Part shown: piece by piece, positions 34,864 through 39,574 of the stretch
Position numbering within the stretch: position 1 is the stretch's first letter
Layout of the letters: every line of letters begins with the position of its first letter
Assembly (NCBI RefSeq): GCF_003334765.1
Contig: NZ_QOWT01000020.1
Reading direction: 5' to 3' (one strand)
Source: Escherichia coli
GTDB taxonomy: Bacteria > Pseudomonadota > Gammaproteobacteria > Enterobacterales > Enterobacteriaceae
DNA length: 64,000 bases
Notes under the pieces: model-generated
The model's input: the letters and a program-made list of their open reading frames with translations, nothing else
What the model was told of the DNA's origin: nothing
Databases searched by the model: none
Translations under genes and position numbers: made by a program

Positions 34864-35567
34864 AGGTCGCTCACATCCTTAAGCGTTACCGGGCATTCAG
34901 ACTGGACAGTTAATGGCTGCCAGGGAAGCGTGGCATAGAAACGATCGCTTCCCGCTGCCAGCTCTTCGAACATACGACTCCCGGCGCTATCGTATTTGTA
35001 CAGGGTTAGCGCCTCGCGTAGCGAAGTGTTGTCTTCGCACTGAGAAGATTGCCAGTAGAGACGTCCTAACGAATAGGCGGAAAAATAGTGCATCCAGCTG
35101 TGATAGTAATGGTGAGCTCGTACATAGACGCGCGATTGCAGCCATAAACTCTCTTCTTCCGTCAGCCACTTGTTGAGCACACCGACCCGTGACAGAAACC
35201 CCATTCGAACATAATCCCAGGCTTTGATTCCCCCTTCCCCACAGCACATAGCGGTTTGGGCAACGAATTGGGTATAAATCAACCCTCTCTCCGAGCCACC
35301 AGCAATTAATGCTTTCCACTCTTCAGGGGAAGAGCGATGCCATGTCAGATATAAGCCAGCTAAATCATTGGCATGACCATCATCAGTCATCTGATAAATA
35401 GTCTGAATTAAATCATCACGATTATTTATTCCCCAGGATGATGAGAGCTCGAATTCTTTTATCCCAGTATACATTTTTGGCGAGTCATGCGCGGGTTTGC
35501 AACCCTGATTAAGTATTTCCATGGGCGCAGAAAGCGCAAAAAGAAGATATTGTTCTTCCTTATTCAT
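34860..35567 (-). CDS. ybeU: DUF1266-family protein YbeU
   Basis: 235-aa ORF; stop overlaps the djlC start by 4 nt; paralogue of the ORF at 37657..38364. Confidence 0.9.
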
Positions 35568-35668
35568 TTGTTAATAATCCCTTAAGTGCATTAACTGACT
35601 ACTTTTTTATTATTGATGAGTATAAACTTGACGCTTTCAAAATAAAAAGAAAATCGAAGCATTCACAC

Positions 35669-36223
35669 ATGAATAAAAAATTAATGTATATATTCGCAAT
35701 TTTTATAGTTGCAGCAATTACCTGTATTAGCCAACCCAAGAAAACGACGTTGCGTGATAAAGCCATGGTGAATTATGCCTTTGATTATTTAAGCTCACCG
35801 GGCAGTCTTCCATTCACCACGGCAGCCACGGAGCTTTCCGCGATTCATGGTCACTCAACGTCGCAATATCGCCTTGGAGAATTTTATCTTCATGGTAGCG
35901 ACGGTAAACCACTGGATTATACACAGGCGAGATACTGGTATGAGCAATCAGCGGAACAGGAAAATCCACGCGCGCAAAGTAAACTGGGGTGGATCTACCT
36001 CAAAGGTCTGGGGGTCAAACCCGACACCCGTAAAGCAATTCTCTGGTATAAGGAAGCAGCTGAACAAGGGTATGCTCATGCTCAATATACTTTAGGTTTG
36101 ATCTACAGAAATGGCTCAGGTATTAATGTTAACCATTATGAATCTCAAAAATGGTTAAAACTGGCCGCCAAACAACATTACAAAAATGCGGAAAGATTAC
36201 TTGCCGGGCTTCCCGCACATTAA
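35669..36223 (+). CDS. ybeT: Sel1-repeat protein YbeT with N-terminal hydrophobic segment
   Basis: 184-aa [23 protein letters not shown] followed by Sel1-like repeats (…A(Q/E)xGxxxAQYxLGxxY…). Confidence 0.85.
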
Positions 36224-36232
36224 CGTCGACTG

Positions 36233-37660
36233 TCACCCGAACAGATGGAGTATTTTCCCTATCAAACCAGCAAAGATAAAAATATAGAAAATAATTTTAA
36301 TGATGCCCAGACAGCCAGGCCCACCATCGTCAACGGGCATTGGCTGCGGTTGCGGCTCCGGTTCAACAGTTTGCTTCTCGGTAAAATTCGCCGCCTGAAT
36401 TAATAATCGACGAATAATTAATGCTTCCAGTGGACAACGATTTTCTGCATCAAGGCGGCTCACAATCGGCATTAATGATTCTTCTGTAGGTTGGCAGGCC
36501 TGCACTAATTGTTTGGCAACTAGATATAATGGCCATAAGGTATGTTCTGTATCACGCGTGAGTGAGATCCGCGGCTTACGTCCTTTGTGCAAAACCATCT
36601 CGACCAGTGAACGCCCCAGCGCAGAGAGTTTTTCATCGCTGAGTATTTCGTATAAATGAAAACGCGTACGGGCGCTGTCGCCGGGGACATAAAGTAGCGG
36701 TTTTCCCTGATCGTTAACCAGATCACGCGCTTCAATCATCATCACCAGTAATGGGTAATAATCGACCCGATGCTGACGGCACCATTGCAACATTAAAGCA
36801 TCCGCCTGGGTGGAGGGATACTCGCGCCAGTAGTCACAAAGTTCTGCCAACAGGCTTTCGCCTTCTCCACAATAGACGCGTTGCGCGTATTCATAATAAG
36901 GCGCATCTTCATTATCAGGTTCAGTTTCCCGCCATGACTGGGCGTAATCCAGAAGTTCGGGGATATCCAGGCGACCTGCGCTATACCAGCGGAGTAAATT
37001 TCTGTGCAGTTTTGCATCATCGGGGATAATCACTGCGCGATGTTGCGCTAAATACAATGTCAGCCATTGTGGATGCGATGACCAAATCCGAGCGAACATT
37101 TGGTAAAAATCGATGGTGTCATTTTGCACGGCAACGGGCAGATGCAGAATGGTCTGGAAGTTAAAAACATTCCCCTTCGCAATGGCATATAAAAAGGATT
37201 CCAGTTCTTCTTCGTCTATTTCCCCGGTATTTTCCTCCTGTAACCACCGCAATCTTTCTGCTAATAACACCACGCACTCGAAGGATAAATGGGCAGTGTT
37301 CATGGCGATTGTGCACAGCGACCAGCGTAATTCATCAATCTCCTCCATCGAGCAATAATTTAATTGCTGAATGAATCGCTGCCAGGCGGAGGGCAGAAAA
37401 CGTTCACTATCAGAGGCAAGTAACGCACGAAAGGCGAGCAGAATTTCATGTTCTGCTACCTCATATTCTTCTGGTTGCCAAACAGATTTAGCAGGCGACT
37501 GCGCAATCCGTAGCGCCTCCTCATACGCCTGACGAAGTTGTTTAAAACCCTGCGGATCGGTTTCTGGATGAAAGGACGGTAACAGCGCCAGATAAGCGCG
37601 GCGGATAATATCGACGTCAGTCGTTTCCTCTATATCGAGGATCTTCCAGCAATTTTTCAT
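36233..37660 (-). CDS. djlB: J-domain co-chaperone DjlB (YbeS), C-terminal hydrophobic tail
   Basis: 475-aa ORF; J-domain-like N-terminus (…[29 protein letters not shown]). Confidence 0.9.
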
Positions 37661-38364
37661 AGGTCGCTCATATCCTTAAGCGTTTCCGGGCATGCAGAAT
37701 AGTAAGCCAATGGTTGCCAGGACAAGGTAGGGTAATACGCATCATCACTGGCAAATAATTGATAAAACATATCATTGCCGGAATCGTCGTATTCTTTACG
37801 CGCTAAGAATTCGCGTAATAAAGGCAGATGATCATCTTCGGGAGACTGCCAATATTGCCGACCAAAGGTATAACCGGCAAAGTATTGCCGCCAGTTACTA
37901 TAATAACGTAGAGCCCGTAGATGAATGCGCGACTGGATCCATAGACTTTCTTCTTCGCTCAACCAGTTATTAAGTACGCCCATTCGGCTTAAAAAACCCA
38001 TCCGGACATAATCCCAGGCTTTGATTCCCCCTTCGCCACAGCATTCGGCGGTGCTGGCGACAAATTGCGCATAAGCCTGACCTTGCTCATTTAGTTCAGC
38101 AAGATAGTCACGCCATTCACATGGCGAATAACGAAACCAGCGGTGATAAAACCCTGCCAACCGAGCGGCATGACCGTTATCGATCATTCGGTGAATTGTG
38201 CGCAGCAGGTCATCACGGTCATCAATTCCCCATGAGGAAGAAAGGTCAAAAAAGCATGTACCTAAATACATTTTGGGTGATGAATGCGAAGGTAAACAGC
38301 ATTCATTGCGTATTTCCATCGGAGTGGAAAGTGCAAACAATATTTTTTGCGACTCCATGTCCAT
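37657..38364 (-). CDS. ybeR: DUF1266-family protein YbeR
   Basis: 235-aa ORF; stop overlaps the djlB start by 4 nt; shares the [20 protein letters not shown] block with YbeU. Confidence 0.9.
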
Positions 38365-38527
38365 ATAATTTATCCTTAAATATTCATTAAATGAATATTA
38401 GCCGCATTGCGAGGCTCGTTTATTTATACTTTTCTGACGCGACATAATACGCATAAAATAAGGCTTACGCAAAAATGGAACACATAAAAATATAATATGT
38501 TTTATCTGCAACCATAAGGAAATGATA

Positions 38528-39505
38528 ATGATTTTCACGTCAAGTTGCTGCGATAATTTATCAATAGATGAGATTATCGAACGTGCTGAAAAAGGCGATT
38601 GCGAGGCTCAATATATTGTTGGGTTTTATTATAATCGCGATAGCGCAATTGATTCTCCGGACGACGAAAAAGCCTTTTACTGGCTGAAGCTGGCCGCTGA
38701 GCAAGGTCATTGTGAAGCACAGTATTCCTTAGGGCAAAAGTATACCGAGGATAAAAGCCGTCATAAAGATAATGAGCAAGCCATCTTCTGGCTGAAAAAA
38801 GCTGCCCTACAAGGCCATACTTTCGCTTCCAACGCCCTTGGCTGGACACTGGATCGTGGAGAAGCCCCCAATTATAAAGAAGCGGTTGTCTGGTATCAGA
38901 TAGCCGCGGAGAGCGGAATGTCTTATGCGCAAAATAATCTTGGGTGGATGTACAGAAATGGCAACGGAGTCGCAAAAGACTATGCGCTGGCATTTTTCTG
39001 GTACAAACAAGCTGCATTACAAGGCCATAGTGACGCGCAAAACAATCTGGCCGATCTTTATGAAGACGGAAAAGGCGTTGCTCAAAACAAGACACTCGCC
39101 GCATTCTGGTATTTGAAAAGCGCACAGCAGGGTAATCGGCACGCCCAGTTTCAAATTGCATGGGATTATAACGCTGGCGAAGGGGTGGACCAGGACTATA
39201 AGCAAGCGATGTACTGGTATCTGAAGGCTGCCGCTCAGGGGAGCGTCGGCGCTTACGTCAACATCGGTTATATGTATAAACACGGACAAGGCGTTGAGAA
39301 AGATTATCAGGCTGCCTTTGAATGGTTTACGAAAGCCGCTGAATGCAATGACGCCACTGCCTGGTATAACCTGGCCATTATGTATCACTACGGAGAAGGA
39401 AGACCTGTCGATCTCCGACAGGCTCTCGACCTGTATCGTAAAGTTCAGTCATCCGGAACCAGAGATGTCAGTCAGGAAATTCGTGAGACTGAAGATTTAC
39501 TGTAG
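38528..39505 (+). CDS. ybeQ: Sel1-repeat protein YbeQ (no signal peptide)
   Basis: ORF 38522..39505 (MIMIFTSSCC…); about eight Sel1-like repeats; start could be 38522, 38525 or 38528. Confidence 0.85.
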   Translation: MIFTSSCCDNLSIDEIIERAEKGDCEAQYIVGFYYNRDSAIDSPDDEKAFYWLKLAAEQGHCEAQYSLGQKYTEDKSRHKDNEQAIFWLKKAALQGHTFASNALGWTLDRGEAPNYKEAVVWYQIAAESGMSYAQNNLGWMYRNGNGVAKDYALAFFWYKQAALQGHSDAQNNLADLYEDGKGVAQNKTLAAFWYLKSAQQGNRHAQFQIAWDYNAGEGVDQDYKQAMYWYLKAAAQGSVGAYVNIGYMYKHGQGVEKDYQAAFEWFTKAAECNDATAWYNLAIMYHYGEGRPVDLRQALDLYRKVQSSGTRDVSQEIRETEDLL

Positions 39506-39510
39506 AGATA

Positions 39511-39555
39511 AAAACAAGGGCCGGGGAATTTCATTCGGCCCATATTCTCTTTATT
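39511..39555. terminator. bidirectional terminator between convergent ybeQ and ybeL
   Basis: AAAAACAAGGGCCG-loop-CGGCCCATATTCTCTTTATT. Confidence 0.5.
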
Positions 39556-39574
39556 GCTGTGCGAAATCAGACTA

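Follow-up and report, generated by a model that had tools for sequence, protein, structure and literature searches.

The 9-nt tail-to-tail junction of ybeT and djlB in Escherichia coli is probably an ordinary tight convergent junction at the boundary of two paralogous modules

The Escherichia coli genes ybeT and djlB converge tail to tail with 9 nt between their stop codons, which raises the question of whether transcripts meeting at so narrow a junction interfere with each other. The initial annotation of this DNA had proposed that the spacer leaves no room for separate terminators, that the 3' ends of both transcripts must enter each other's coding region, and that this allows mutual antisense interference between a Sel1 gene and a J-protein operon. 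We analyzed the junction in a window of 64,000 nt (contig NZ_QOWT01000020.1), along which the genes are ordered hscC(+), djlC(-), ybeU(-), ybeT(+), djlB(-), ybeR(-), ybeQ(+), and ybeL(-). The features around the junction are listed below, with ybeT and djlB placed from the sequence and the list of open reading frames.

31682-33352, plus strand, hscC
33412-34863, minus strand, djlC
34860-35567, minus strand, ybeU
33412-35567, minus strand, the ybeU-djlC operon of module A, paralogous to ybeR-djlB
35669-36223, plus strand, ybeT coding sequence, 184 aa, TAA stop codon at 36221-36223
36224-36232, the 9-nt spacer CGTCGACTG separating the stop codons of ybeT and djlB
36233-37660, minus strand, djlB coding sequence, 475 aa, TGA stop codon (tca at 36233-36235)
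37657-38364, minus strand, ybeR coding sequence (DUF1266), upstream of djlB
38522-39505, plus strand, ybeQ open reading frame (annotated start 38528), the Sel1 gene of module B

The genes ybeR and djlB overlap by 4 nt and therefore presumably form a single operon. The last codons of djlB encode a membrane anchor, DjlB being a tail-anchored J-domain protein (PMC8215388).

The distance of 9 nt between the convergent stop codons was borne out by the sequence, the list of open reading frames, and RefSeq annotation. The window, an E. coli chromosome segment, matches NZ_OZ547038 at 100% identity and K-12 at 99.8-99.9%, and the RefSeq annotation of K-12 MG1655 has the same gap (djlB end at 678842, ybeT at 678852-679406). 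Five more E. coli records are annotated with a 9-nt gap, including NZ_OZ547038 and strain DFS.1, in which djlB is a 3' fragment only. An 85-nt probe spanning the junction matched 4256 of 5426 complete E. coli genomes, and the junction is absent altogether from about 22% of them. The arrangement, with two genes on opposite strands, tail to tail and 9 nt apart, has the geometry of a convergent excludon.

Gaps of this size were found to be ordinary in K-12. We listed every convergent pair of coding sequences in 250 kb of K-12 annotation (n = 25), and six of these pairs have a gap of at most 9 nt or an overlap.

djlB/ybeT, gap 9 nt
modC/ybhA, gap 0 nt
nei/abrB, gap -4 nt (K-12 746723-746726)
pnuC/zitB, gap -4 nt (K-12 783882-783885)
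yedP/dgcQ, gap -4 nt (K-12 2026323-2026326)
yedA/vsr, gap -12 nt

Gaps in the other pairs of the sample span 28 to 165 nt. Thus about one K-12 convergent pair in every four or five has a tight or overlapping junction, and a convergent gap of 9 nt or less is, by itself, no sign of regulation; ybeT/djlB can serve as a calibration case. As in ybeT/djlB, there is no room for an intergenic terminator in nei/abrB, pnuC/zitB, yedP/dgcQ, and modC/ybhA, and 3' overlap is obligatory. These four pairs have shared or nearly shared stop codons and overlap physically, whereas the stop codons of ybeT and djlB are 9 nt apart. Three of the six tight pairs overlap by exactly 4 nt, a recurring geometry with complementary stop codons.

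The claim that the two transcripts are forced to overlap is physically sound as far as it can be judged from the sequence. A length of 9 nt is too short for a terminator, and there is no hairpin followed by a U-tract within the spacer, so any completed transcript must enter the partner's coding region; neither can terminate between the two stop codons. We analyzed each strand for candidate termination sites. Three features were identified.

36186-36218, minus strand, candidate hairpin in the djlB 3' UTR: GUGCGGGAAG, a 13-nt loop, then CUUUCCGCAU; dG about -11.6 kcal/mol
36170-36185, minus strand, U-rich tract UUUUGUAAUGUUGUUU directly 3' of the candidate hairpin
36485-36514, plus strand, first weak terminator-like site for ybeT: 8-bp stem, dG -8.8, tail CTAATTGTTT

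The candidate hairpin on the djlB strand begins 15 nt past the djlB stop codon, lies within ybeT codons 173-184, and would put the end of the djlB transcript near 36180, some 50 nt beyond the stop codon. Its stem of 10 bp (4 G-C, 4 A-U, and 2 G.U) and the U-tract directly after it are of the kind found in intrinsic terminators, which have G+C-rich stems of about 5-14 bp, and its 13-nt loop exceeds their usual 3-8 nt. A standard promoter and terminator scan, which is limited to loops of 8 nt, found no site at the junction; it missed the hairpin because of the larger loop. By the same criteria we counted 58 sites over both strands of the window (128 kb), or about 0.45 per kb of strand, so that any one stop codon has a chance of roughly 3% of being followed by a comparable site within 60 nt. 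The terminator of the neighboring gene ybeL is a hairpin with a nominal 12-nt loop that coincides with a Term-seq 3' end mapped at K-12 675562, so structures like the djlB hairpin can work.

Comparison among relatives gave a mixed picture of the hairpin, with mild support from pairing statistics. Over nine distinct sequences, 97.8% of the pair cells hold standard pairs. The changes comprise five one-sided substitutions that keep a wobble pair on the minus strand, one compensatory substitution, and two breaks, and 11 of 500 shuffles matched the observed pairing in a covariation test. The predicted hairpin is weak (-3.3 kcal/mol) in L021, a metagenomic relative with an intact djlB, and reaches about -15 in the relatives L020 and L022, both without a functional djlB. 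The strength of the hairpin thus fails to follow whether djlB is present, and its persistence may reflect only the ybeT coding sequence. We regard it, tentatively and with somewhat more doubt than confidence, as a possible working terminator for ybeR-djlB in E. coli, probably a partial one. Transcripts of ybeR-djlB would then probably end, at least in part, 15-55 nt past the djlB stop codon, within the last 12 codons of ybeT.

On the opposite strand, ybeT has no recognizable terminator in the sequence. The plus-strand RNA past the ybeT stop codon is predicted to be unstructured (z = +0.7 and +0.3), and the first weak terminator-like site lies about 260-290 nt inside djlB. The C/G ratio of 78-nt windows over the 480 nt past the stop codon was 1.0-1.4, compared with a window-wide 90th percentile of 1.5; by this ratio, which is uninformative on Rho itself, there is no rut-like region within those 480 nt. 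With an unstructured RNA, a weak first site, and no rut-like region, ybeT transcripts presumably end heterogeneously inside djlB. They would run antisense into djlB until a weak hairpin or Rho stops the polymerase. All 3' ends of ybeT and djlB transcripts given here are predictions.

We compared these predictions with published expression data. Gene-level read counts in wild type from Huang et al. 2020 (PMC7373196, Table S1c) are as follows.

djlB: sense 2.86 RPM, antisense 6.89 RPM
ybeT: sense 1.18 RPM, antisense 3.11 RPM
ybeR: sense 0.67 RPM, antisense 0.42 RPM
leuS: sense 411 RPM, antisense 5 RPM

The sense reads of djlB and ybeT (1-3 RPM) compare with about 410-450 RPM for the neighbors leuS and ybeL (PMC7373196). 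The antisense density of each of the two genes exceeds the sense density of its supposed source gene, so other antisense starts or noise must contribute. Double-stranded RNA captured with p19 amounts to 1.9-8.9 RPM in ybeT, 2.0-11.3 RPM in djlB, and 0.1-2.3 RPM in ybeR (PMC7373196, Table S1b). These values are all far below the threshold of about 23 RPM within 200 bp, and no dsRNA cluster was called at the locus in that study. Reads for ybeT and djlB did not increase in the rnc-14 and rnc-38 mutants (PMC7373196). These data are gene-level counts from three strains in standard media, with both genes low in each strain; the overlap could matter under an inducing condition. In rows b0643-b0653 of the same study, the strand column of Table S1c conflicts with Table S1b and with the annotation (ybeL, ybeR, djlB, ybeT, ybeU, hscC, gltL, and gltK), so the sense and antisense assignment of low-count genes needs care; the highly expressed genes look sensible.

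DjlB, DjlC, and HscC were below proteomic detection in exponential phase (PMC8215388). Adams et al. 2021, in the accessible Term-seq tables, report no 3' end between K-12 675677 and 683425, and the lack of one at the djlB U-tract is probably due to expression that is too low. None of ybeT, djlB, ybeR, ybeU, and djlC has a mapped 3' end or an operon call in the accessible portions of the supplements of PMC7815308, PMC12207403, PMC6131387, and PMC10687069. Complementary ybeT/djlB RNA thus exists at trace level, with no indication of an effect on expression. In a separate context, a TraDIS screen with phage Arnold ranked ybeT among its top hits, but the Keio knockout of the gene did not differ from wild type (bioRxiv 10.1101/2025.12.01.691526).

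The layout of the junction was found to be conserved among close relatives. A scan of a genome collection returned three other Escherichia species and, beyond these, only distant Pseudomonas relatives, whose neighboring genes received no names from NCBIfam. The three species, E. whittamii, Escherichia sp. E1V33, and Escherichia sp. MOD1-EC7003, have the same layout with a 9-nt spacer at 88-91% DNA identity, and substitutions in the spacer at positions 1, 3, and 9. Both open reading frames are full-length with the same ends in these other species. In L021 (YbeT 82% and DjlB 75% identical), the spacer is 10 nt long and unrelated in sequence. In L020 (YbeT 71% identical), ybeT is followed by 10 nt and then by a remnant that comprises the last 64 codons of djlB (tblastn identity 69%, E 3e-15), and the remainder of module B has given way to RibD_C and AlaE genes. 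Spacer length is constant at 9-10 nt across these relatives, and the spacer sequence drifts freely. The junction therefore predates these lineages and survives even beside a dead djlB. The L020-type layout was not found among the complete E. coli genomes.

We found no extra synonymous-site constraint near the junction relative to the rest of ybeT and djlB. In 90-nt windows around the junction, third codon positions had a variability of 0.26-0.37; over the whole gene it was 0.43 in ybeT and 0.34 in djlB. Strain HH97 (H30) was left out because its sequence is apparently error-ridden.

Several further observations concern the fate of the two modules in individual genomes. In the metagenomic or SRA sequences L020 (4556-4832) and L022 (4343-4365), YbeL is 96-97% identical to that of E. 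coli and YbeT only 71-72%. L022 likewise has RibD_C and AlaE genes in place of module B, and a different DjlB-like gene (about 29% identity) adjoins ybeL there. Module B is decaying in some strains (L002, 5634-6099; L003, 5070-6031; L015, 13-1464 and 5130-5700). Strain DFS.1 carries a deletion that runs from about codon 42 from the end of djlB into ybeQ, strain J6 carries an IS1-associated deletion from ybeT into ybeR, and strain 53_142304 has internal stop codons in djlC and ybeQ. A contig of 384 nt in a Caballeronia mineralivorans assembly (NZ_AEJF01000274.1) encodes the first 65 residues of DjlB with 100% identity to E. coli, and is most likely E. coli contamination of that assembly.

The genes on the two sides of the junction are paralogous. 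Along their whole length DjlB and DjlC share 50% identity, in an alignment that runs from end to end and takes in the tail anchor, and YbeR and YbeU are 59% identical. The DNA repeats of ybeU-djlC and ybeR-djlB are in register with a spacing of 2797 nt. The locus therefore comprises two old copies of a single unit, arranged in tandem. In each module, a J-protein gene and a DUF1266 gene share a strand and point away from a Sel1 gene on the opposite strand, and the ybeT/djlB junction is the boundary between the two modules.

The Sel1 proteins point to how this boundary may have formed. YbeT has three significant Pfam Sel1 repeats, at residues 64-98, 100-135, and 136-169, and the protein breaks off some 12 residues after the start of a would-be fourth one. 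The best BLAST segment is in register and aligns residues 55-181 of YbeT with 56-179 of the 325-aa YbeQ, ending three codons before the ybeT stop codon. A duplication, or a later deletion, could have cut the Sel1 array and left a truncated ybeT abutting the 3' end of djlB. The junction is most likely a scar of such an event. We hold this with only moderate confidence because out-of-register alignments of the YbeT and YbeQ repeats score nearly as high as the in-register one and because the two proteins have unrelated N-termini. The start of YbeT is hydrophobic and resembles a signal or lipoprotein sequence (35669-35740), and YbeQ has no such segment (38522-38600), so the two Sel1 proteins may occupy different compartments.

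The paralogous convergent pair hscC/djlC has a gap of 59 nt (33353-33411) that is filled by a strong REP-like palindrome, GCCGGATGCGGCGTAAACGCTGCATCCGGC, at 33360-33391 (fold z = -5.2), with weak sub-threshold Rfam matches to naRNA4 on both strands. Compared with the 9-nt ybeT/djlB spacer, this indicates that the two module ends are built very differently. An Rfam search of 31-41 kb at E <= 1 gave no match at the ybeT/djlB junction, and the naRNA4-like match to the hscC/djlC palindrome was the only hit. The divergent promoter regions ybeU|ybeT (35400-35799) and ybeR|ybeQ (38200-38599) have 34-36% G+C against about 50% around them, and aligning them for a shared operator revealed only AT-rich similarity. 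Promoter fusions of ybeT and ybeU have been picked as candidate SlyA-responsive reporters (PMC7417354). The AT-rich promoter regions and this choice of reporters agree with H-NS/SlyA-type silencing and very low expression.

On this evidence, ybeT/djlB is probably an ordinary tight tail-to-tail junction with no dedicated function, a module-boundary scar at which the 3' ends overlap passively. Both units are expressed at very low levels in laboratory conditions. The overlap would thus not serve regulation but arise as a passive by-product, as it does at most convergent operons of E. coli. Overlap of this kind is well documented: complementary 3' ends were found in 276 of 370 convergent E. coli operons, with a mean overlap of 286 nt (Conway et al. 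2014, PMC4161252), and ybeT/djlB would be an ordinary instance at an annotated K-12 locus. The part of the initial annotation that concerned overlap is in keeping with the antisense reads and some p19-captured dsRNA in both genes. The further proposal of mutual interference between the Sel1 gene and the J-protein operon found no support in sense expression of 1-3 RPM, in dsRNA clusters, in RNase III mutants, or in synonymous conservation, and tight convergent junctions are commonplace. It would amount to a functional convergent excludon, in which polymerase collision, RNase III cleavage of the 3' duplex, or both make expression of YbeT and YbeR-DjlB mutually exclusive. In MG1655, 165 convergent excludons have been catalogued, 146 of them with overlapping terminators predicted inside the neighbor's unit, and excludon-forming gene pairs have short intergenic distances (ExcludonFinder 2025, PMC12288877). 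The ybeT/djlB pair resembles the convergent excludons of these studies (PMC4161252, PMC12288877) in its very short gap and in having one terminator predicted inside the other unit. The layout and the spacer length of 9-10 nt are conserved across Escherichia, antisense reads at least equal sense reads in both genes, and p19 captured somewhat more dsRNA per length from ybeT and djlB than from ybeR. The complementary 3' RNA expected of convergent excludons is detected faintly, at gene level. The ybeT/djlB pair differs from the class described in those studies in that its expression is near background, it is not known to show reciprocal expression, and its overlap is predicted from sequence and gene-level counts. 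The locus has no dsRNA cluster, and reads do not rise in either rnc mutant. The spacer sequence is unconstrained, synonymous conservation is not in excess, module B has been deleted or has decayed in several strains that keep ybeT intact, and about one in four or five K-12 convergent pairs is equally tight. We therefore consider a functional excludon unlikely. Were the overlap to prove regulatory, it would lengthen the list of 165 catalogued convergent excludons by one and hint at cross-talk between two poorly understood HscC co-chaperone modules.

A related explanation holds that the conserved junction, with the djlB terminator buried in ybeT, acts as an excludon upon induction of an H-NS/SlyA-type silenced cluster. 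This would couple the two HscC-associated modules by making YbeT and YbeR-DjlB exclusive, and we judge it quite improbable. The hairpin-forming sequence at 36186-36218, near both stop codons, raises the alternative that a single hairpin pauses polymerases coming from either side and so sets both 3' ends, in the manner of the bidirectional, collision-assisted terminators between convergent genes of Ju et al. 2019. An account in bioRxiv 10.1101/2022.10.23.513370 attributes this mechanism to hundreds of convergent gene pairs in E. coli. The likeness, as far as that account goes, is the presence of a hairpin-forming sequence near the meeting point. In contrast to that type, the sequence lies inside a coding region and is asymmetric between strands, with a dG of -11.6 on the minus strand against -7.6 on the plus strand, where it contains A.C mismatches. 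The U-tract is on one side only: the plus-strand hairpin stands upstream of the ybeT stop codon and is followed by AUUAACGUCG, which is no U-tract, and the plus-strand region is unstructured overall (z = +0.7). The hairpin is thus not predicted to work on both strands. Collision also needs frequent initiation, and ybeT and djlB are nearly silent. A shared bidirectional terminator accordingly has little probability. It might also be asked whether the narrow gap is an annotation artefact, with one reading frame ending elsewhere or not being real and the true gap being larger. Nothing was found in favor of this, beyond ybeT being short and poorly expressed. The stop codons are unambiguous, both frames are conserved full-length with the same ends in other Escherichia species, YbeT has its three significant Sel1 repeats, and DjlB aligns with DjlC from end to end; an artefact is refuted by these observations and has next to no probability. 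An ordinary tight junction with passive 3' overlap remains the preferred reading.

Within the same cluster, the convergent pair ybeL/ybeQ (39506-39574) was found to be a better-supported case of 3' overlap than ybeT/djlB. The two junctions are alike in having a large-loop hairpin and U-tract on the minus strand and in that antisense RNA enters a Sel1 gene. Unlike ybeT/djlB, ybeL/ybeQ has a 69-nt gap with a two-sided terminator, mapped 3' ends, and a well-expressed ybeL. The accessible Term-seq tables place ybeL-strand 3' ends at K-12 675562 and 675677 (window 39403-39541), one just before ybeQ and one inside it, and a second table of the same study lists a further 3' end inside ybeQ at K-12 675984. 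For ybeQ, antisense reads (31 RPM) exceed sense reads (9.7 RPM), and p19-captured dsRNA was found at U00096.2 675596-675619.
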